Position numbers and translations under genes: made by a program. From NCBI GenBank assembly GCA_049903315.1, contig JBNGBT010000004.1, positions 192,001-256,000 on the forward strand: DNA of 64,000 bases, written 5' to 3'. A model generated the notes under the pieces. The model did not search any database. It was not told the DNA's origin and saw only the letters and a list, made by a program, of their open reading frames with translations. The DNA is from Candidatus Cloacimonadota bacterium. Lineage in GTDB: Bacteria > Cloacimonadota > Cloacimonadia > JGIOTU-2. This document shows positions 21,525-30,184 of this stretch, piece after piece. The first letter of the stretch is position 1; the number at the start of each line of letters is the position of its first letter.

Positions 21525-21581
21525 AGAACGTATAGAAATGTAGCACAAGATTCCGATCTTATGTAAGTAAAAGAGATAGTC

Positions 21582-21771
21582 GTTCATTTTCTCCTTGATG
21601 AGAAAACGAACCAAATGAATCACACGCTGATCAAGAAAACACTAAAATTTCATTCATTCAGCTAAAAGAAAAGAACTTATTCTTCCGACACTTCGGAAGA
21701 ATTCAAACAGCTTTCCTTTTTTAACACCTCATTCACAAAATTTCTTAACGTGTTTTCTTAATAGGCGGGAA
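21582..21771. repeat. ~190 bp structured non-coding repeat, copy 1
   Basis: Near-identical to 22052-22241; several nested inverted repeats. Confidence 0.9.
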
Positions 21772-22051
21772 TGGATAAGAAAAAATCAAATCCTCTCTAA
21801 ATAAGGGGAGTACGCCAACTGGCGGATACATCATCGCAGGTAAAGCCCAAAGAGATAGTTGCATAATTTAATAATGAAAATTCTAAAGAAGTAAAAATAC
21901 TCATGAATTTTAATCAATCGAAATTGAGAAATTATTGAAAAAGTAACGCATGATTCCAATCTTGCGCGATTCATAACTGAACTGAACACATTAATTATAA
22001 CGATGAGTCGGGTAAATAGTTGGAATTGAAATATAACTGAAAGATAATTAT

Positions 22052-22241
22052 GTTCATTTTCTCCTTGATGAGAAAACGAACCAAAAGAATCACCCGCTGA
22101 TCAAGAAAACACTAAAATTTCATTCATTCAGCTAAAAGAAAAGAACTTGTTCTTCCGACACTTCGGAAGAACTCAGACAGCTTTTCTTTTTAAACGCTTC
22201 ATTCACAAAATTTCTTAACGTATTTTCTTAATAGGCGGGAA
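22052..22241. repeat. ~190 bp structured non-coding repeat, copy 2
   Basis: Direct repeat of 21582-21771. Confidence 0.9.
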
Positions 22242-22359
22242 AGCAAATACCTGATCCTGACTGTATGATCTAAATTTTATTATGAGTTAAATATGTCGCT
22301 TAACGAATTTCTTGTATATTTGTTGAGGTTGTGGGACAACCCCGCGATTTTATTTCTTA

Positions 22360-22919
22360 TTATTTATACAAATTTTTCATTCGCTGCAGAAGTTCATCAT
22401 TTTCAAGTAAGGCAACAGAATTTGTAATCTGATTTACTGATCCGATTTCAGATTTTATGTGCAGAATGGCTTTGTTCTTTATCTGTTTTTTTTATATGTC
22501 TTGCAAAAATTCCACCATTAATAACGAGATATGGTCTATCATAAAATTCAGTGACTTTAACTTTAAGGGGCTTGGTAATTTTTAAATTATTGTGCATGTG
22601 TGCAATACTTTCATATGCTTTCGAGAGATATTTTTCTCTTTCTTTCCAATTTTCAGAAGAGATAATTTTGTGGAAAAGAGGAGTGAGTTCTTTTGCTGAT
22701 CTTAATTGTGCCAAAGCAGTTCCAAACCATTTGCTGTAAGGCACATATTCTTTTTCCATTAAAAAGCAAAGTCTCATGAGTGACTGGACTAATCGAGCAG
22801 CAATAATGCGAGAACCTAACTCATCCTCCGCATCTCCGCATCTGCCGACAAAAGGTTCCTCTTCAGCAATGTTAGTCCATTCCGATGCAAGAAGGTAAAG
22901 CCAAATATCATGAGGATAA
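22360..22919 (-). pseudogene. 3' half of a DUF4037-family gene, 5'-truncated at the array end and frameshifted
   Basis: YPHDIWLYLLASEW..EEEPFVGRCG..DELGSRIIAARLV..LCFLMEKEYVPYSKWFGT. Removing one A from the A8 tract (22486-22493) restores ...IGSVNQITNS...LYK* ending at 22360. Confidence 0.8.
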
Positions 22920-23036
22920 TGTTTTGCGCATACGGCGGAATCAGCAGGATTCCGTCGTAAAACGAACAGCCAAACACCTGAGCCGGAAGGTTCAGGCAAA
23001 AAGCACTGACCAAACCAACTGACGACACGGCTGTTA
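22917..23036 (-). repeat. attC-like site 6 (distal; outer stem degenerate)
   Basis: + strand TAATgttttgcgcatacggc...cctgagccGGAAggttcagg...gacacggctGTTA, 120 bp. Confidence 0.88.
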
Positions 23037-23162
23037 CACGAATTTTTAGTTATTAATCTCGAAAGAATTAGAAAAAAGCTAACCCTGGTAGCTGACTGGG
23101 ACAATGCCCCAGCCAACGACAGCACCTCGCTCTCCAAATAAATGGAGATCCAGGGAGTTGCT

Positions 23163-23981
23163 TTATTTTCTACGAATTTCATCTATTTGTTTTTTTGCGC
23201 AATGTTTTTTTTTCATCGAAAGACCATCACATATTTCAAAATTATCATTTCGCCATTCAATTTGATTGAAATTTGAAGTTCCTGGCACTTCTGAACCAAG
23301 GAAATACCTTTTATTATTATGAATAATGCCAAAATTTATCGAAGCAGAATCCGGTTTTCTATATAAACCAATTAGTTGTGGAGAACCTCCACAGTTTTTA
23401 TCTCTTATATTAAATAAAGTATCACAAAAACAATGAAAGACATTTCTACTGGTGCTTTTATTTACACCCTGTTGATATCTTTTGTAGTTCTCAATAAATT
23501 CTTGTCTACCAGAACCGAGAACAAATAGTAAATCTGATTGCATAGGCAAATTCATTGTTTCTCTTTTAGAAGTAATTGAGTTTGACCAAGTCATTTTATA
23601 ACATTTGAAATTAGGATAATTATTAACAATTGTGTCTCTGGTAATGTGCATTATGTTTACGATGTTACTTACCAATTTCGGATATTTTGAAAAAGAATGT
23701 GATATTTTTTCGAATACAAGTTTGTTTTTTTTATCACAATTTAGGGTTTTTGTAAAAAGAATATTGGAATCTATCATCTCGATTATTTGAGATAATACTA
23801 TTGATGGAAATAACACATCGCCAGAATAAGCTAATATTTCAGGATATTCTTTTGAGGAAAAAACTTTTTTACCATAATCAAATTTGGTTGTACTATTCCA
23901 TGTAAACCGGCTATCGCCAGCAATATATGCTGACGTTGGTCCGTGTGTGTCAACGCCTAACCAAGAAACGATTAAGGTCAC
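23163..23981 (-). CDS. Cassette 6: Ntn-hydrolase / proteasome-beta-like putative Thr peptidase
   Basis: GGAG RBS then GTG at 23981 gives M-TLIVSW...AGDSR; later VLGSG and GGSPQ motifs. Confidence 0.65.
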   Translation of the reverse strand: MTLIVSWLGVDTHGPTSAYIAGDSRFTWNSTTKFDYGKKVFSSKEYPEILAYSGDVLFPSIVLSQIIEMIDSNILFTKTLNCDKKNKLVFEKISHSFSKYPKLVSNIVNIMHITRDTIVNNYPNFKCYKMTWSNSITSKRETMNLPMQSDLLFVLGSGRQEFIENYKRYQQGVNKSTSRNVFHCFCDTLFNIRDKNCGGSPQLIGLYRKPDSASINFGIIHNNKRYFLGSEVPGTSNFNQIEWRNDNFEICDGLSMKKKHCAKKQIDEIRRK

Positions 23982-24012
23982 TTTTATCTCCAACTAATTA
24001 CAAAATTTCGTG

Positions 24013-24130
24013 TAATGTTTTGCGTGTGCGGCGGAATCAGAATGATTCAGCCGAGACAAACAGCCCAAACCCTGAACCGGAAGGTTCAGGACAGAAGCAC
24101 TGACCAGCCCTACAGCCGACACGCTTGTTA
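24013..24130 (-). repeat. attC-like site 5
   Basis: TAATgttttgcgtgtgcggc...gccgacacgcttGTTA, 118 bp. Confidence 0.92.
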
Positions 24131-24136
24131 AGTGCA

Positions 24137-25168
24137 TCAATCCAAAACATCTCTTCCACTTGTATAAGTAACTTCAATTGTTTCATTGAAAACTAATTTT
24201 TGGCTATCACTTGTAAATGATCTTGCAGAAGAAGCCGGAGTTTCAGATAATAATGTTATTTGATCAGTTACCATATCCCAAACCATGAATTTAGAGAACT
24301 CATCTATATAGGCAAGTTTATTTCCGTCAGGAGAGATTTTAGGAAAGGTTCCTGAGAATAAATGTGAAACGGAATAGTTAGATGTATTGAGTAGATAAAT
24401 TTCATCATCGTCCTCAAAAACAACTTTTGATCTATCTTCGCACATTGATAATTGTATTAAAAATCCTTCATAAATGTATTGATTATTAGTACCATCAGTA
24501 TTAATTACATAGATACCTGGTTCAGAGAAGTATTTGCCATTTACATAGATAAGAGTGTTTTCATCAATCCAATCAACAGATGAATATGAGTTTTCCGATG
24601 AAAATTCAGAATCAACTACTACATCGATGTAACCGTCTAAATTGCGAAATTTAAGTGACCAAAGAACACTGTCTGGTAGCTCAAAATAATGTTTCTGAAT
24701 ATATGCAAAATATTCATAATTTGGTGATGGTTTTACATAACCTTCTACGATAGAATCAGTATTTGTTAGAACCTCAACAGTTCCAGATTCAATCGAACCT
24801 AAATAAATGTCACAATCAATTGAAGTTGGACCCCAGAAGATTATTTTGTTTAAATTTGGGAACAACTCAAAATCACTAATATCGTAATTGGTTGTATCAG
24901 TTGGTAGGATAGTATTTATACTTAAAGTGTTTAAATCGAGTGAAACAATTTGATCATAAGGGTAACTAATCTTAGTTTTATGTAGGATTTTTGAGTTATT
25001 ATCATAAAAAATAGAATGTCCTGCACTATAATCTGTGAGTTGAATTTTGTTTGTACCATCGCAATTAATCATTGTTAGATAGTCATAATAGTAAGTTTCA
25101 GTTATTGGTTCACAACCAATTATAAATAGAACTAATACAACCGAAATGCTATAAGCTAAATATTTCAT
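24137..25168 (-). CDS. Cassette 5: lipoprotein with a TolB-like beta-propeller
   Basis: MKYLAYSISVVLVLFIIGC lipobox; INTDGTN and ISPDGNKLAY repeats. Confidence 0.75.
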   Translation of the reverse strand: MKYLAYSISVVLVLFIIGCEPITETYYYDYLTMINCDGTNKIQLTDYSAGHSIFYDNNSKILHKTKISYPYDQIVSLDLNTLSINTILPTDTTNYDISDFELFPNLNKIIFWGPTSIDCDIYLGSIESGTVEVLTNTDSIVEGYVKPSPNYEYFAYIQKHYFELPDSVLWSLKFRNLDGYIDVVVDSEFSSENSYSSVDWIDENTLIYVNGKYFSEPGIYVINTDGTNNQYIYEGFLIQLSMCEDRSKVVFEDDDEIYLLNTSNYSVSHLFSGTFPKISPDGNKLAYIDEFSKFMVWDMVTDQITLLSETPASSARSFTSDSQKLVFNETIEVTYTSGRDVLD

Positions 25169-25196
25169 TCCTTTTACTCCATACTTTTGATGCACT

Positions 25197-25314
25197 TAAT
25201 GTCTTGCGTATGCGGCGGGATCAGAATGATCACGCCAAAACAACCAAGCAAACACCTGAGCCGGAAGGCTCAGGACAAAAGAACCGAAAAGCCCAACAGC
25301 CGATACGCCTGTTA
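25197..25314 (-). repeat. attC-like site 4
   Basis: TAATgtcttgcgtatgcggc...gccgatacgcctGTTA, 118 bp. Confidence 0.92.
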
Positions 25315-25353
25315 CAGGCAGTTTAAGATGAAATATTCTACACATAATTTAAA

Positions 25354-25866
25354 TCACCAGATATATTTGCATCTTACAAGGTATTTTACACCTTCATCAG
25401 TAACTGTATATGATTTTCGTCTTTTCTTATTAATAAATCCATCTAAATATCCATTATCTTTTAAATATCCAAATGCAATTAGTGTTTTAAGATATGCAGT
25501 TATTGTTGATTCTTTGAAACCTACCGCTTCGGCATATTTATCTTTAAAAAAACAAGGTGCTTCGTTCGTTAACAAAACAAATAAAAGTCTTCTTAGGTGT
25601 TTTTTATTTGGTAGTTTTAATTTACGATTTTTATATAAGCAAATAGAGGTGTAGACAAGTGATAGAATTACAAAACACATTAATATTATTGATAATCTCA
25701 ACATTGGTAGTGATATTTTACTGTGTAACGATAACTGCTGTAATAATTTTGAGAAAAATGGGAAAAATTGAAGACCTGAAGGAGATAAAATTGGGATTAC
25801 TATTTGTAGGATTGATACAATATCTCTCCATGTTAATTTGTTGTTATTTTTATCTTTTTCACTCAC
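25354..25866 (-). CDS. Cassette 4: hypothetical membrane protein with a possible C-terminal winged helix
   Basis: GAGG RBS and GTG start; hydrophobic N-half; YLKTLIAFGYL...YTVTDEGVKYL wHTH-like tail. Confidence 0.6.
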   Translation of the reverse strand: MSEKDKNNNKLTWRDIVSILQIVIPILSPSGLQFFPFFSKLLQQLSLHSKISLPMLRLSIILMCFVILSLVYTSICLYKNRKLKLPNKKHLRRLLFVLLTNEAPCFFKDKYAEAVGFKESTITAYLKTLIAFGYLKDNGYLDGFINKKRRKSYTVTDEGVKYLVRCKYIW

Positions 25867-25911
25867 TTCATCCTCTCAATTAAAACAATAAAAAAATACA
25901 GCAACTGCCTG

Positions 25912-26031
25912 TAATGTTTGGCGTGTGCGGCGGAATCAGAAGGATTCCGTCGTAAAACAAACAACCCAAACCCTGAACCGAAAGGTTCAGGCAAAACACA
26001 CCACGAAACCGAACAGCCGACACGCTTGTTA
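25912..26031 (-). repeat. attC-like site 3
   Basis: TAATgtttggcgtgtgcggc...gccgacacgcttGTTA, 120 bp. Confidence 0.92.
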
Positions 26032-26061
26032 AACGCATATATCATAAAATTTCACCGAAAC

Positions 26062-26712
26062 TCAATTACGAAAATAATCTGAATCAGCCAAGATTATTTG
26101 CTTATTCGTATGAAAAATTCCTGTAACATTTGTATATATTTTTGAAATTACTGGTGGAGGATAATTTGTTTTAATTAAAAAAACAACCCAACCATTATTC
26201 TCACTAATTTGATTTCCTCTCCAGTTAAACTTTTTCCCATTATCATATAATCCTTTTCCACCTGTAAAATTAGAACTTGATCTTCGATACTCATAATTTA
26301 TTGAATCAACAGGTTGTTCAAATATTAGAGTAAATTCAAAATTATTAATTGGTTTTTTAGTAATGTTTTTGAAACCAAGCTCATAATATTTATTTGTATT
26401 TTGGTAGGGTTGAGGATTTTTAATTTTTTGATAGAACAATTCATATTTGGGAATAGAAACATTGTCTTCAGAGTTTTCAAAATTGTAGTTAATTATTACA
26501 TCACTATTATCACCTTCCGTTGAAATTGCAGGTGAGAAAGAACCATCTGTAGTATTATGTATTTCCTTATACTCATCTTCTTTTGGATTAATAATGAATT
26601 TAGTTACCAGAGTTAATGCGAATGATATTATTGCTAAATAAGATACAAAGACAGTTATCTTTGTTGGAAAACTCCAAGCTTTCCATTGTTTTCTTGAAGG
26701 AATAAATTTCAT
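26062..26712 (-). CDS. Cassette 3: hypothetical protein with an N-terminal membrane anchor
   Basis: ORF fills the cassette; single TM segment near the N-terminus. Confidence 0.65.
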   Translation of the reverse strand: MKFIPSRKQWKAWSFPTKITVFVSYLAIISFALTLVTKFIINPKEDEYKEIHNTTDGSFSPAISTEGDNSDVIINYNFENSEDNVSIPKYELFYQKIKNPQPYQNTNKYYELGFKNITKKPINNFEFTLIFEQPVDSINYEYRRSSSNFTGGKGLYDNGKKFNWRGNQISENNGWVVFLIKTNYPPPVISKIYTNVTGIFHTNKQIILADSDYFRN

Positions 26713-26749
26713 TTATCAACCCCACAAAACTCAATAATTAATATGCGTT

Positions 26750-26868
26750 TAATGTTTTGCGTGTGCGGTGTGATCGGAACGATCACGCCAACCCAAACAA
26801 ACCAGCCGTTTGAATCGTAAGATTCAAACAAAGAGCACTGACCAACCCGAACAACGACACGCCTGTTA
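26750..26868 (-). repeat. attC-like site 2
   Basis: TAATgttttgcgtgtgcg...tttgaatcGTAAgattcaaa...cgacacgcctGTTA, 119 bp. Confidence 0.92.
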
Positions 26869-26880
26869 GGCACATTTTAC

Positions 26881-27522
26881 TTATGTAGAAAAATCAAGTT
26901 CCTGAGATCTTGTATATGATTGTGCTCTGGGAATTGATATTGGTATATTCTGAATTATGGGATTATTTTTTTGAGGTTCATAAATTATTGATAAATCAGC
27001 ATTAACAGGTAACAAATTGGAACTAATTTCATGTGTTAAACCATAGTCTTTTGCTTCAGTCGGATTAAGTGTAGTTCGATTATTCATGTCCTCGAATATT
27101 TTATCGGTTGATTTTCCTGTATTGTCAGCTATAACTCTTGCAATATTTAATTGATCAATTTTTAATCCATTTAAGTGTTCTTCTATTTGCTTTTCGTCTA
27201 AGCTAACGTTACCATTGAAATTAAATCTTACTCCATGAAGAAGGAACCTTGAGTGGGGAACTGAAAAACGTTTTTCTCCAGCGCAATAAATTACAACACC
27301 AATTGAATCAACGCTACCAAAATTATACGTGTCAATTTTTATTGGAGCTCCTTTGAGATAGTTATAAATGGACAGACCATGAAAGACAGAACCTCCTGGA
27401 GAAGAAATCATTAAATGTAGTTTTTCAAATTTTTGAGCGATTTTTTGATCAATTATCCGTAATAGTTGATCACTTGTTTGCGGAATTACGGGAGCCATAA
27501 ATCTAATGTAACATTCTTTCAT
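26881..27522 (-). CDS. Cassette 2: ClpP-family protease subunit (divergent)
   Basis: ISSPGGSV, GSVDSIG (Ser), RFLLH (His) and LNPTEAKDYGL motifs; GGAGG RBS. Confidence 0.85.
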   Translation of the reverse strand: MKECYIRFMAPVIPQTSDQLLRIIDQKIAQKFEKLHLMISSPGGSVFHGLSIYNYLKGAPIKIDTYNFGSVDSIGVVIYCAGEKRFSVPHSRFLLHGVRFNFNGNVSLDEKQIEEHLNGLKIDQLNIARVIADNTGKSTDKIFEDMNNRTTLNPTEAKDYGLTHEISSNLLPVNADLSIIYEPQKNNPIIQNIPISIPRAQSYTRSQELDFST

Positions 27523-27556
27523 TTTACTTTACCTCCAATTTTTTTTTAAATGTGCC

Positions 27557-27676
27557 TAATGTTTGGCGTGTGCGACGGGATCGGAACGATCACGCCCAAA
27601 ACAAACCGACCAGCCGTTTGAATCGGAAGATTCAAACAAAGAGCACTGACCAACCCTACTGCCGACACGCTTGTTA
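27557..27676 (-). repeat. attC-like site 1 (proximal)
   Basis: TAATgtttggcgtgtgcg...cgacacgcttGTTA, 120 bp. Confidence 0.92.
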
Positions 27677-27774
27677 GCTACATCTTTTTCTATTTCAATT
27701 ACTTACATTTTAAACTTATTTAAGTAAAGAATTTTATTGTTGTTCTTGGATAAATGGGTGTCATAATTAATTCT

Positions 27775-28248
27775 TCATTTTTTTATCTGAAACCATTCTG
27801 ATTCAATTTTACCTTGTGGATAAAAACCTTTGTAAGGCGACCCAGGCATATTTATAAATGGCGAGTGCATATATATAATGTCTCCAATTAATTTAAAGCT
27901 ATATTTGCCTTTGATTGGGGCAATTACTTTATATTTGTCAGGATAATTGAAAATTGTGAAACCCTGTTTAGTCGGTAATAAACGTTTTTTTTTGAGCTTA
28001 TTATTTTCATTTTTATAAAGAATAAAAAGATTTGACGAATAATAAAAATCAGGATTATCAATTCCTTTAATATCTACAGAAAAAGTTAGAGTATCTAATT
28101 TTGTGGAAATGTCAGAAGTTATTAAAGAAATACTTCTATGTTTATAAAGATTCGAGATATAATTATAACTTACTTTAGTATTGAAGTTATATGCACATGA
28201 AGATAACAAAAATAAGAAACACGCTGATTTTAATAATTTTATTAGCAT
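27775..28248 (-). CDS. Cassette 1: hypothetical lipoprotein
   Basis: MLIKLLKSACFLFLLSSC lipobox; ORF fills the cassette. Confidence 0.65.
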   Translation of the reverse strand: MLIKLLKSACFLFLLSSCAYNFNTKVSYNYISNLYKHRSISLITSDISTKLDTLTFSVDIKGIDNPDFYYSSNLFILYKNENNKLKKKRLLPTKQGFTIFNYPDKYKVIAPIKGKYSFKLIGDIIYMHSPFINMPGSPYKGFYPQGKIESEWFQIKK

Positions 28249-28302
28249 ATTATTAACCTAAAAATATTTTCCAATTCTCCATCCATTTCATTTAGATGTA
28301 GC

Positions 28303-28400
28303 TAATGTTTGTATACCCGACCAAAAGGTCGTGTATATTACGATTAAATTTCCTATAAGGTCGTATACAATACAATATATAAGTTATATACGAACTTGTT
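28303..28400 (-). other. attI-like primary insertion site directly downstream of the recombinase
   Basis: Carries the same TAATgtttg end as the attC-like sites but an unrelated body; AAGGTCGT direct repeats at 28325 and 28357; hairpin 28311-28338. Confidence 0.7.
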
Positions 28401-28412
28401 TTAATTATGAAA

Positions 28413-29477
28413 TTATGTTTCATCTAACTTCAAATTATCCAATGGACTTTTAATTTTGTTTCTTGCTGTATGTGTAACATGGGTATATATCTCTGTTGTT
28501 CTTGAGCTTTTGTGCCCTAAAAGTTCTTGAATATACCTCAAATCAGTCCCATGCTCCAATAAATGAGTAGCAAAACTATGCCGTAAAGTATGTATTGAAG
28601 CATGTTTCTTTACTCCAGATTTGTTTACAGCTGCTTTAAATAATTTTTGTATTACTCTCCTACTGAATTGTTCTCCGTATTTGCTTTCAAACAGCCATTT
28701 CTTTGGTTTATAAACCTTATAATATGTTCTTAGTAAATCTAATACGGTATCTGAAAGAATGCCGTATCTATCCTTGTTGCCTTTTGCGCTTCGAATAAAT
28801 ATCTGTTTTCGATCAGAATGAATGTCGGATATTCTCAAATGTACAACTTCTGTTAAACGTAATCCTGCAGAATAGATCAAATAGATAATACATTTATATT
28901 TCAGGTTCTTGACCTGTTTCAATATTTTTGTTACTTCTTCCTCGCTTAGAACTTCCGGTAGCTTTTTTTCTTTTCTTGGTCGAGGAACGTAATATTTTTC
29001 AACAGGTTTTCCCAGCACTTTTTCATAATAAAACTTTATACTGTTTATTGCTTGATTCTGTGCAGAAGTGGAATATTTCTTCTTATCTACCAGGTATAAC
29101 AAATATTTACGGATCTGTTCATGTGTGATATCTTTCAATTTAGTGTTTTGATAATATTTTAAAAACCGCTGAAAATGAAGACGATAAGTTTTAATGGTTG
29201 CGTCACTATAGTTTTTCAATTTCAAAGTTTCAATGTATTCAGAAGGGAAATCTAGTTTTGTATCAGTATCTTCTATGAATTCTAATTTACCTTTGAATTT
29301 CGTATGTAAAACACTAATGATATTTTTTTGATAGGGGATATGCCAGAACTTATTTGAAGCAGACCACTTTCTGCCTTCTATCTGTTTAATCTGTCTAATC
29401 GTATTTATGTCATAATCAAACAGTAGAGCAATACGTCTCTGCTTATCAATCAAATATTCCTTAGTCTTTATCTGCAT
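28413..29477 (-). CDS. Tyrosine recombinase (array-associated integrase) with a SAM-like core-binding domain and an extra N-terminal domain
   Basis: YSAGLR, AKGNKDR, HTLRHSFATH, LLGH and TTEIYTH catalytic motifs intact; NYS..TIKTY...STSAQNQAINSIKFYY. Confidence 0.95.
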   Translation of the reverse strand: MQIKTKEYLIDKQRRIALLFDYDINTIRQIKQIEGRKWSASNKFWHIPYQKNIISVLHTKFKGKLEFIEDTDTKLDFPSEYIETLKLKNYSDATIKTYRLHFQRFLKYYQNTKLKDITHEQIRKYLLYLVDKKKYSTSAQNQAINSIKFYYEKVLGKPVEKYYVPRPRKEKKLPEVLSEEEVTKILKQVKNLKYKCIIYLIYSAGLRLTEVVHLRISDIHSDRKQIFIRSAKGNKDRYGILSDTVLDLLRTYYKVYKPKKWLFESKYGEQFSRRVIQKLFKAAVNKSGVKKHASIHTLRHSFATHLLEHGTDLRYIQELLGHKSSRTTEIYTHVTHTARNKIKSPLDNLKLDET

Positions 29478-29519
29478 ACTATATCCTTCAGGTCATAATT
29501 TGGAGAATCATATTCCTCT

Positions 29520-29525
29520 TGTCAA
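29520..29525 (-). promoter_or_regulatory. TTGACA -35 element upstream of the recombinase
   Basis: Perfect TTGACA ~42 nt before the ATG; same motif precedes most transcription units in the window. Confidence 0.5.
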
Positions 29526-29542
29526 AGTAAATATTTTTTTCA

Positions 29543-30184
29543 TTAAAATCCCATATTCTCCTTAATTAAAAATATCTTTATCCTGTCCGGAATATTCTGG
29601 CGCATATTAATGGTCAGGTGTTTGCAGATACGCTCCTCAGCATCGCAGTCTGTGCAATAGCCGTTTTCAGCGCATGGAGTATTTCGTTTCAGCCGCTTTG
29701 CATTAATGGGAGCAGCCACATCGAGTACCCGGTCAATCGCCTGCTGCCTGTCCATCACGATCTTGTTCATGCCGGCAAAGAGGAATATTTTTCTTGGTCC
29801 AAAAATAATAGCTGAAACCCGGTTGCCATACCCGTCGATATTCACGATCTCACCTTCTGTGGTAATTGCATTGCATCCGGCAAGGAAGAAGTCGGACATG
29901 AGTGTTTTTCTGCGAAGTTCAAAAATTTCATCTCTGCTAAGGTTGGGGAGATAGGGATTAATAATATTGTAGTTATTGTCTTTGAGATGATCGAACAGTC
30001 CGATCTCCCGCACGGTCATGGAGCCGCCTATGCCGATGGATGATTTCTTATCGAGTTCCTTCAATGCTTTTTCACGGGCATCGTCACTATTTTCACAGAG
30101 TTCTACAAGGAAGTTATGTTTTTCCAGCGCTTCTTTTGCCTTTTTCATCATTGTTTCGTTGTGCCAGTTCACGAATTCAGACAT
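29543..30184 (-). CDS. LUD-domain (lactate utilisation-like, DUF1121-type) protein
   Basis: GIGGSMTV, NAITTEGEIVNIDGYGNRVSA, AAPINA, TPC...CTDC...IC motifs; GGAGG RBS before ATG 30184. Confidence 0.85.
   Translation of the reverse strand: MSEFVNWHNETMMKKAKEALEKHNFLVELCENSDDAREKALKELDKKSSIGIGGSMTVREIGLFDHLKDNNYNIINPYLPNLSRDEIFELRRKTLMSDFFLAGCNAITTEGEIVNIDGYGNRVSAIIFGPRKIFLFAGMNKIVMDRQQAIDRVLDVAAPINAKRLKRNTPCAENGYCTDCDAEERICKHLTINMRQNIPDRIKIFLIKENMGF

Follow-up and report, generated by a model that had tools for sequence, protein, structure and literature searches.

An integron-like cassette array with ATT-core attC-like sites beside an insertion-less tyrosine recombinase in a Cloacimonadota bacterium

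Background

The best-described counterparts of the locus reported here are the sedentary chromosomal integrons, exemplified by VchIntIA and its long, branched VCR sites (structure 2a3v). Like these, the locus carries promoterless-looking one-gene cassettes that each end in an imperfect palindrome of ~120 nt, complementary cassette ends and an insertion platform beside the recombinase gene, and its sites show the same bottom-strand G·T bias, GAA loops and branched terminal structure (PMC5027507, PMC5371416). A low predicted folding probability is shared with Vibrio sites. The GTT triplet is conserved in all characterised integrons, probably for cassette exchange between them (PMC2811028, Discussion). 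The I2 insertion of the integrase and the bulged bases of its sites are seen as a co-evolved pair that poses a chicken-and-egg problem (PMC4792948), and in the published view recombinases without the C-terminal IntI insertion that lie near attC sites are not integron integrases (PMC4889954).

The engineered ATT class 1 sites of Frumerie et al. (PMC2811028) showed that sites tolerate a G-to-A change of the first base, which leaves them nearly orthogonal to GTT partners. According to Table 4 of that paper, IntI1 recombines ATT with ATT at wild-type rate, whereas the reaction of wild-type attC with attI-ATT drops to 3.4e-3. As described there, those mutants carried the change on both arms (an A-T pair) and were recombined by IntI1; the ATT cores below are natural, affect one arm only and are fixed in a clade. 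In the full-text literature we found no description of natural ATT cores or of insertion-less or HARP integron-like systems; supplementary figures S1 and S5 of PMC4889954 could include members of this family.

Organisation of the cassette array

Within the window (the whole analysed stretch of 64,000 nt), six sites of 118-120 nt alternate with six same-direction genes downstream of a tyrosine recombinase gene (Table 1), which, other than in sedentary chromosomal integrons, lies upstream of its array and points in the same direction. The products of cassettes 1 and 3 had no match in Pfam, NCBIfam or PADLOC, and PADLOC gave weak matches only for the proteins of the window. At the distal end, the array abuts a truncated DUF4037 gene that covers PF13228 profile positions 33-101 only and is single-copy in the genome. 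That it starts exactly at the TT of site 1 likely marks an off-target junction; an intact relative was not found in the 30 related genomes searched with the window query.

Table 1. Predicted features of the array, listed by position in the window
Feature	Position	Strand	Description
DUF4037 gene, 3' part	22448..22919	-	starts at site 1 TT
attC-like site 1, most distal	22917..23036	+	decayed; A at bulge
Cassette 6 (22920-24015) gene	23163..23993	-	276 aa; sole match weak (RmrA, E 0.007)
attC-like site 2	24013..24130	+	bulged G 24028; ends complementary over 10 nt
Cassette 5 (24016-25199) gene	24137..25195	-	~345 aa, lipoprotein-like; weak TolB-type beta-propeller match (E 0.0015)
attC-like site 3	25197..25314	+	bulged G 25212; compensatory gcgtAt/aTacgc; ends complementary over 9 nt
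Cassette 4 (25200-25914) gene	25354..25866	-	170 aa; weak C-terminal Csa3 match (E 0.0016)
attC-like site 4	25912..26031	+	bulged G 25927; ends complementary over 9 nt
Cassette 3 (25915-26752) gene	26062..26712	-	216 aa
attC-like site 5	26750..26868	+	bulged G 26765; ends complementary over 9 nt; two compensatory T-A pairs in second half of outer stem
Cassette 2 (26753-27559) gene	26881..27522	-	213 aa; ClpP-like protease (PF00574, E 2.7e-27)
attC-like site 6	27557..27676	+	TAAT core, 5-nt spacer, bulged G 27572, 2-nt spacer, GTTA; right flank complementary to attI flank over 9 nt
Site 6, hairpin 1	27579-27591	+	GAA loop
Site 6, hairpin 2	27616-27637	+	GGAA loop
Cassette 1 (27560-28305) gene	27775..28248	-	157 aa; lipoprotein-like N-terminus
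attI-like site	28303..28337	-	11-bp imperfect inverted repeat, 5-nt spacer, then A|TTA
Tyrosine recombinase gene	28413..29477	-	354 aa; PF00589 and PF13495

The two ends of each cassette are reverse complements, which argues for insertion from a circle. This holds for all six cassettes of the window (6-10 nt, versus 0-1 nt for a site's own flanks), for related sites (mean end identity 5.2/6 over 30 adjacent pairs, versus 2.3 over 70 own flanks) and for metagenome sites, where the end complement is perfect in 24/32 pairs but in 7/137 own flanks. From such signatures we infer recombination at the array. Four contig sets, in which rare forms are dropped by assembly, contained neither an excision joint nor a circle joint at a core; the joints among the matches fall inside sites and likely derive from other loci. 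Viral contigs gave no match.

A recombinase without the IntI insertion

The catalytic residues R207, K232, H296, R299, H322 and Y331 are conserved across 44 aligned proteins. In contrast to IntI, the enzyme lacks the 43-residue insertion (21 residues, compared with 64 in VchIntIA, 2a3v) and bears an extra HARP-like domain. The integron-integrase model TIGR02249 scores 228 bits, below its cut-off of 265, with the match split into two stretches, and no integron integrase above cut-off was found in the 96% complete genome. The best sequence and structure matches are Xer-type enzymes (XerA, 5hxy/4a8e; XerC/D), colinear over the patch III region; from these it differs in heading cassette arrays and in its extra N-terminal domain. 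XerC and XerD models score far below cut-off, the XerA model is marginal (221 versus 220), the half-sites lie ~110 nt apart, unlike those of the 28-bp dif-like sites of XerC/XerD, and the genome has separate Xer-like genes.

Evidence for the HARP-like nature of residues 1-72 is indirect. PF07443 (HARP) matches 12 of the 44 aligned members (best 3e-7), the window protein not being among them, and in the predicted structure residues 1-73 resemble the N-terminus of T4 UvsW (Z 5.9, rmsd 3.1, 61 aligned residues). An atlas search with this domain returned matches below 0.9 and unnamed. The AlphaFold model was built with an alignment (pLDDT 87), the single-sequence model being unusable (pLDDT 38).

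A hybrid AAC/ATT core

A preliminary description of this DNA had noted that the six sites read TAAC...acATTA on the gene strand (TAAT...TGTTA on the + strand) and that the attI-like site also ends in acATTA, which we confirm. Its further statement that ATT replaces the invariant GTT of integrons applies to the R' arm; the R'' arm still reads AAC. The first base of R' is A in 67/70 sites of the related-genome set (G in 3) and, with this base left free in the search, in 135/137 new metagenome sites (T in 2, G in none). Overall this makes A in 202/207 sites, in place of the invariant GTT triplet of integrons, with GTT cassettes accounting for 3/207. The fourth base of R'' is C in 69/70 and 135/137 sites, so that the pairing partner is G in 204/207. 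Since R' has A while R'' stays AAC, folding of the non-coding strand would set T against G as a wobble pair (T·G) at the position of crossover. ATT on one arm is common to about 200 related sites and fixed in the clade.

Compared with classical attC sites (PMC5027507), the departures are this hybrid core (AAC/ATT, T·G when folded, versus AAC/GTT), a central spacer of 5/2 nt instead of 5-6 nt per arm, and the bulges: one G on the cut arm here, 2-3 on the opposite arm in classical sites.

Fold and covariation

The preliminary description had made its branched single-stranded fold depend on covariation in a larger alignment. Across 51 sites, 94.4% of the cells pair and 14/30 pairs change on both sides, which was matched by 0/500 shuffles; sliding the pairing partners by 1-3 columns lowers pairing to 27-38%. 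Covariation extends over the 12-bp stem, from which a G bulges, and over two hairpins of GNA/GNNA type, whose stems change on both sides in 13-23 of the 51 sites while the loops keep G..A. The outer stem described earlier (gcgtgt[G]cg/cgacacgc), including the compensatory change at 25197, is present, its length being 12 bp (6 + bulge + 6) rather than 8; the extra G occurs in sites 2-6, whereas site 1 (22917) has A at this position and 3/6 broken pairs in the first stem. The remaining elements were found as described: GAA triloops in the first hairpins of four of the six sites, cGNAAg loops in all second hairpins with the stems quoted earlier, A/C-rich linkers (78-84% A+C on the + strand) and a branched multi-way fold, which RNAalifold recovers.

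With z-scores of -2.5 to -5.5 on the + and -1.9 to -4.9 on the - strand, folding of the sites is not due to chance. The recombinogenic fold lies ~5 kcal/mol above the MFE, single-sequence MFE folds of window and related sites often miss the outer stem, and stem 1 has a mean pairing probability of 0.36 on the + versus 0.33 on the - strand. By MI-APC the outer-stem pairs rank low (the best is 35th), and the hairpin pairs that lead the ranking could stem from a small number of ancestral subtypes. An alternative helix between columns 18-22 and 37-41 pairs in 192/251 cells (77%), compared with 272/306 (~89%) for the outer stem, and lacks the G·T bias; we therefore ranked it lower, and it may be a real competing fold. 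Among relatives, the hairpins tolerate palindromic insertions and complete deletions, and one-hairpin deletion sites of 79-85 nt are flanked by good cassette signatures.

Strand choice

The + (non-coding, bottom) strand, proposed earlier as the folded substrate, is supported indirectly by crossover position, G·T bias and loop type. Platform sequence runs up to the ATT arm and the cassette ends are complementary, which places the crossover at R'; by tyrosine-recombinase chemistry it would then be the bottom strand that is cut. Top-strand recombination at R'', which would put the bulge in its classical position, was rejected, as it does not fit a platform that stops at the ATT arm. On the + strand, G·T outnumbers A·C by 49:0 in the core, 26:6 in stem 2 and 21:3 in hairpin 2, an independent set giving 76:10 for stem 2, and the loops are of GNA/GNNA type in 56/57 and 51/53 classified hairpins. 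A constrained fold is more stable on the + strand in 44/68 sites, by ~1 kcal/mol, and so favours it only weakly; the plain MFE, lower on + in 42/68 sites, is uninformative as a strand test. Bottom-strand folding cues, G·T bias, GAA loops and branched tops have also been described for classical attC (PMC5027507), so it is not here that the novelty lies.

The attI-like platform

We place the attI crossover between 28306 and 28305 on the basis of the sequence. The site is kept behind 12 close integrases, with differing sequence downstream of it, and over 30 platforms its inverted repeat has 7.6/11 Watson-Crick pairs, compared with 4.9 after shuffling. A search for a Pc promoter in the platform gave two matches at 9/12 consensus positions, ending at 28412 and 28404; the total of 34 matches does not exceed chance expectation (41.8).

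The ATT core of the platform, true of the window, is not a rule: among relatives, 24 platforms read ATT and 12 of 36 read GTT. The first base travels with the platform, as it is G in 8/30 platforms versus 3/70 sites (Fisher p 0.0025, for kin that are not independent), which fits a crossover at N|TT. The first cassette is ATT at 15/15 ATT and 9/10 GTT platforms, the sole GTT first cassette adjoining a GTT platform; given the rarity of GTT cassettes, their absence from ATT platforms carries little statistical weight. One GTT site (L119) stands behind an ATT junction of unclear type.

Relatives and origin of the ATT core

Core type follows the recombinase tree. ATT integrases form one clade (13 rows, support 97/89) nested among GTT users, which is why we regard ATT as derived. 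The GTT-core insertion-less arrays of Bacteroidota and others share the enzyme family (45-57% identity), the +3 spacer register and the layout; their sites have AAC/GTT cores, an unbroken stem of ~11-12 bp and variable tops, whereas in the ATT clade a G bulges from mid-stem and the two-hairpin top is fixed. In distant relatives the +3 register was observed 39 times versus 2 after shuffling, with AAC/GTT in 35/39 and AAC/ATT in none, in plain hairpins of 52-63 nt; these sites come from a fixed-register test, a loose self-BLAST and a loose hairpin scanner having been too noisy. Alongside many related arrays, the recombinase gene is a remnant or missing. Rfam gave six weak chance matches, none of them relevant.

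Proposed mechanism and alternatives

We consider it likely that the six repeats serve as cassette recombination sites for an integron-like platform, whose insertion-less, HARP-like recombinase cuts the folded non-coding strand at AA|T, with T·G replacing C-G. In this model, the bottom strand of a cassette circle would fold into a terminal stem, made of a cassette-specific complement of 6-10 bp plus TAAT/GTTA, followed by the unpaired 5/2-nt spacer, the 12-bp stem with its bulged G on the cut arm and, on top, two GNA/GNNA hairpins that meet the stem in a three-way junction. The recombinase would exchange one strand with the double-stranded attI behind its own gene, docking involving one base, and replication would likely resolve the junction. 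The branched top, most likely a variable terminal element, would aid folding and strand choice; the HARP-like domain may hold it, and recombination probably does not strictly need it. With G retained on the partner arm, docking of an ATT cassette would involve one wobble and one Watson-Crick pair whether the platform is ATT or GTT, while a GTT cassette at an ATT platform would meet a C·A mismatch. Compatibility would then likely be one-way, with ATT cassettes entering both platform types and GTT cassettes barred from ATT platforms. The wider reading is tentative, and we give it less than even credence: a second integron lineage that recombines folded single-stranded DNA without the I2 helix, with HARP fork-binding on the three-way junction, T·G picking the strand, and an ATT pool that exports to GTT platforms and refuses GTT cassettes.

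The same cassette system might operate with ATT as neutral drift under a tolerant enzyme and the hairpins as a decoration of this lineage spread by homogenisation, without a compatibility barrier or junction role. IntI1 requires only first-base identity, according to the data in PMC2811028, the platforms switch between A and G (24 versus 12), and the hairpins survive palindromic insertions and whole deletions (79-85 nt) and are plain in relatives; still, drift does not explain why A persists in 202/207 sites and its partner remains G in 204/207 instead of turning Watson-Crick, nor the two-sided changes of the hairpin stems around loops that keep G..A, and we regard it as rather unlikely. Less probable again is a Xer/Cre-like use of double-stranded sites, the internal hairpins acting as terminator or stabiliser in cassette mRNA. 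This would suit an enzyme that has no insertion of the kind associated with single-strand recombination and stands as near to archaeal XerA as to IntI; on the gene strand, hairpin 2 and its T/G-rich tail score as terminator-like, and covariation alone cannot separate DNA from RNA. Yet the core sequence common to attI and attC is only ~5 nt long, too short for a Xer-type overlap, half-sites ~110 nt apart are brought together only by folding, both wobble bias and G..A loops point to the non-transcribed strand, and the T/G-rich tails are interrupted by G. To our knowledge, the gene-strand loops (TTCC, TTAC, TTC) match no known stable RNA loop, which also speaks against an RNA role.

Most arrays without IntI have been read as decayed integrons (PMC9024848, PMC4889954), and with many related arrays adjoining a gene remnant or no gene, the sites might be relics or served in trans by a classical IntI, the adjoining recombinase being incidental. 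This we judge very improbable, given the lack of an above-cut-off integron-integrase match in the genome, the same platform behind the same recombinase in 12 close loci, a core type that follows the recombinase tree, and a spacer and bulge arm that differ from classical bottom strands (PMC5027507).

Implications

Searches that demand the IntI insertion would not report arrays of the proposed integron-like kind as complete integrons. An array without the classical insertion or bulges, and with a HARP-like domain, bears on the origin of single-strand recombination, and it offers DNA engineering a ready-made recombination pair that is possibly orthogonal. A natural clade in which ATT is fixed, the core is a T·G hybrid and platforms of either type occur makes the idea of GTT conserved for cassette exchange directly testable. 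For the lineage itself, ATT on one arm would likely provide its own, one-way-compatible pool of swappable genes.

Array and cassette ends

The array was borne out as first described: six repeats of 118-120 nt, each running from TAAT to TGTTA on the + (non-coding, or bottom) strand, alternate with six minus-strand genes. The array follows a tyrosine recombinase of 354 aa and lies in an island of low GC (29-36% versus about 40%). An assembly artefact is unlikely, because contigs from two public runs span positions 22119-29700 without any difference; these runs may themselves be the source of the window DNA. In all six cassettes of the window, the bases that follow GTTA are reverse-complementary to those preceding the next TAAT on the right, over 6, 10, 9, 9, 9 and 9 nt, the last partner being the attI-like platform at 28303; the own two flanks of a single site match over 0-1 nt. 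These complementary ends are the trace left by insertion of circular cassettes.

The site family was present in 18 of the 61 relatives' genomes searched. The window and 58 fetched stretches yielded 89 hits, 70 of them complete and unique (19 partial hits were not counted), whose 30 adjacent pairs, of which the window supplied five, agree on average at 5.2 of 6 bases, versus 2.3 when the two flanks of one site are compared. A second, independent scan of metagenomes (at least 145 stretches, 144 loci read) added at least 137 new complete sites; among the matches listed, 24 of 32 adjacent pairs were perfect as against 7 of 137 own flanks.

The joint between the distal site and a DUF4037 gene is likely an off-target recombination junction; the 5' part of this gene was not found in the window's genome. 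Reads showed copies related to the direct repeat next to the array to occur elsewhere.

Locations of the array and associated features (L-numbers, fetched stretches of relatives)
Feature	Location	Description
attC-like sites (six)	window 22917-27676	
attI-like platform	window 28303-28337 (-)	
Tyrosine recombinase gene	window 28413-29477 (-)	
Distal joint	window 22448-22919	distal site joins the interior of a DUF4037 gene at the site's TT
Direct repeat	window 21561-21771 and 22031-22241	211 nt, 91% identity, terminator-like hairpin; between dnaX and array
Platform inverted repeat	window 28312-28337	11 bp, imperfect, 2-7 nt centre, 5 nt before core; kept in relatives
Second family cassette	L141:7200-8380 (own genome, contig C69)	solitary (DUF4238 gene), behind degenerate ATT platform
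Long array	L049:12067-20790 (Bacteroidales)	very homogeneous, at least 12 GTT-core sites of ~121 nt, behind family member
Sites with tip palindromes	L101:6928-7053, L109:9413-9548, L113, L119, L121-L123, L127	short palindromes at tips of either hairpin; sites 126-136 nt, stems unbroken
Short sites	L107:6610-6688, L120:6433-6511, L109:8393-8477	recurrent, 79-85 nt, minus one hairpin and linker
Platforms without intact adjoining recombinase (18)	L101, L102, L104, L107, L108, L112, L115, L123-L125, L127, L130, L131, L133, L135, L140, L141, L158	attI-like, heading arrays
Multiple family recombinase genes	L146, L147, L065, L068	at least two, in tandem or near one another

Core and fold of the sites

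Replacement of the GTT core by ATT, as claimed in the preliminary description, holds for the crossover arm R' but not for its partner arm R'', whose AAC did not follow. R' began with A at 67 of the 70 sites, the other 3 having G. Of 137 sites among the metagenome matches listed, 135 had A at this position, 2 had T and none had G, the search pattern having imposed nothing on this base. The fourth base of R'' was C in 69 of 70 sites and, among the matches listed, in 135 of 137 metagenome sites. With R' changed and R'' kept, the crossover pair is thus T·G on the folded + strand and A·C on the folded gene strand.

For 51 of the 70 sites (114-124 nt), RNAalifold recovered the proposed branched fold, comprising two hairpins and an outer stem whose bulged G is at column 16. 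The predicted covariation was likewise found: 94.4% of cells were paired, and 14 of 30 pairs had changed on both sides. None of 500 shuffles, which ignore relatedness, attained any measure of the full structure, and slid-partner controls reached only 27-38% paired. By MI-APC, hairpin pairs ranked 1, 2, 4 and 9 among 6903 column pairs, outer-stem pairs 35 and lower. The extra G occupied the bulge in 50 of 51 sites.

Wobbles point to the + strand, as had been proposed, with G·T versus A·C counts of 49:0 in the core, 26:6 in stem 2 (one of the outer-stem halves around the bulged G) and 21:3 in hairpin 2; stem 1 gave 23:13. Among the metagenome matches listed, stem 2 gave 76:10 on +; stem 1 and the bulge, fixed by the search pattern, were not counted as evidence there. 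GNA loops are specially stable in DNA. The GNA/GNNA loops expected on + occurred in 56 of 57 classified first hairpins and in 51 of 53 second ones, counts that leave out 10 and 14 hairpins with insertions or unparsed. Folding predictions speak against the fold: its constrained form was more stable on + in just 44 of 68 cases, its energy exceeded the MFE by about 5 kcal/mol, and there is a helix that competes with it. Vibrio sites likewise have a low folding probability, in the part available of PMC5371416.

The tip palindromes, one with six copies in the window's genome, are possibly REP-like elements. The short sites, two of which stand between good cassette signatures, probably arose by slippage between similar cores of both hairpins.

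Platforms and first cassettes

A platform search by cassette signature gave matches in 20 of 82 cases, compared with 14 of 1608 with foreign flanks. Platform cores were ATT in 22 and GTT in 8 of 30 (a further 2 ATT and 4 GTT among the metagenome matches listed). GTT is found in 8 of 30 platforms versus 3 of 70 sites (Fisher p 0.0025, kin not being independent), which suggests that the first core base remains with the platform and that crossover occurs at N|TT, the position known from class 1 integrons (PMC2811028, in part). Among the matches listed, an ATT cassette came first behind 15 of 15 ATT platforms for which a site was complete, and behind 9 of 10 GTT platforms; the sole GTT first cassette stands at a GTT platform. 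Some of these pairs are separated by more than 1.5 kb, and a further site between them may have escaped notice.

Wobbles in the platform inverted repeat favour the gene strand (33 versus 10), opposite to the cassette sites. Another pair resembling it is found farther upstream. There are several recombinase-less platforms per genome; five of the 18 have a 3' remnant of the recombinase gene directly upstream. The element seems to have been copied around genomes, the recombinase then being lost.

Recombinase family and origin of the ATT core

The closest recombinases (71-79% identity) are mostly from Cloacimonadota. Behind distant family members (49 of 71 loci, with at least 300 nt of downstream sequence), a fixed-register test gave 39 sites at offset +3 versus 2 in shuffled sequence; 35 were AAC/GTT and none AAC/ATT. 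Seven distant platforms, read by eye, were GTT. In a tree of 43 rows, none of them the classical integrase IntI, with two Xer-like genes from the window's genome as root, the ATT users fall together in a single clade (13 rows, 97/89) surrounded by GTT users. Judged from these sequences, the ATT core is derived. Both GTT-type and ATT-type systems are present in a related draft genome (G019) with 8% contamination. In Bacteroidota, many family proteins are extended by 100-250 aa at the N terminus.

The window recombinase is missing 43 residues relative to the Vibrio reference VchIntIA and scores under the integron-integrase cut-off. Its N-terminal domain weakly resembles T4 UvsW in fold (Z 5.9), and 12 of 44 relatives match the HARP profile there; UvsW uses an N-terminal HARP domain in fork regression (PMC4666394, in part).

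Proposed mechanism

The substrate would be a single-stranded site, with one strand exchanged, resolution by replication and the HARP-like domain binding the junction. By established chemistry, a tyrosine recombinase that crosses over at R' cleaves the strand leading from that arm into the spacer; here this is the + strand, which would be cut at AA|T. Contig GC skew, positive in 12 of 14 blocks of this draft contig, weakly suggests that + is the lagging-strand template, so that its folding would be favoured.

For IntI1, the available part of PMC2811028 gives docking by one base only, with ATT/ATT at wild-type rate and wild-type attC x attI-ATT falling to 3.4e-3. Under such a rule, sites that pair T on the cut arm with an opposing G would dock through a single wobble at ATT and GTT platforms alike; those with a full A-T pair would face a mismatch at GTT platforms, and GTT sites would face one at ATT platforms. 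The predicted rule would explain both the kept AAC and the first-cassette distribution, in which the GTT class is small.

Relation to classical integrons

Classical attC sites share bottom-strand use, G·T bias, GAA loops and, in some cases, branched tops (PMC5027507, in part), so these cues confirm the kind of object, yet are ordinary. The window sites differ in their AAC/ATT core, 2/5-nt spacer and bulge on the cut arm, whereas classical bottom strands have bulges on the other arm. The system is predicted to work integron-like, yet it lacks the IntI-specific insertion, the invariant GTT and the attC spacer/bulge geometry.

The insertion/bulge relation has been framed as a chicken-and-egg problem for I2 (PMC4792948), and insertion-less recombinases near attC were concluded not to be IntI (PMC4889954), both as far as the available parts go. 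In the part available of PMC9024848, complete integrons of the wider group are given solely for Chlorobi, Ignavibacteriae and Salinibacter. Full-text searches of main article texts returned no paper on an ATT-core, insertion-less integron-like system, nor do the available parts of bioRxiv 10.1101/2022.02.06.479319 and PMC13616975 describe one. It is well supported that the ATT-core array represents a real, so far undescribed variant of the integron kind.
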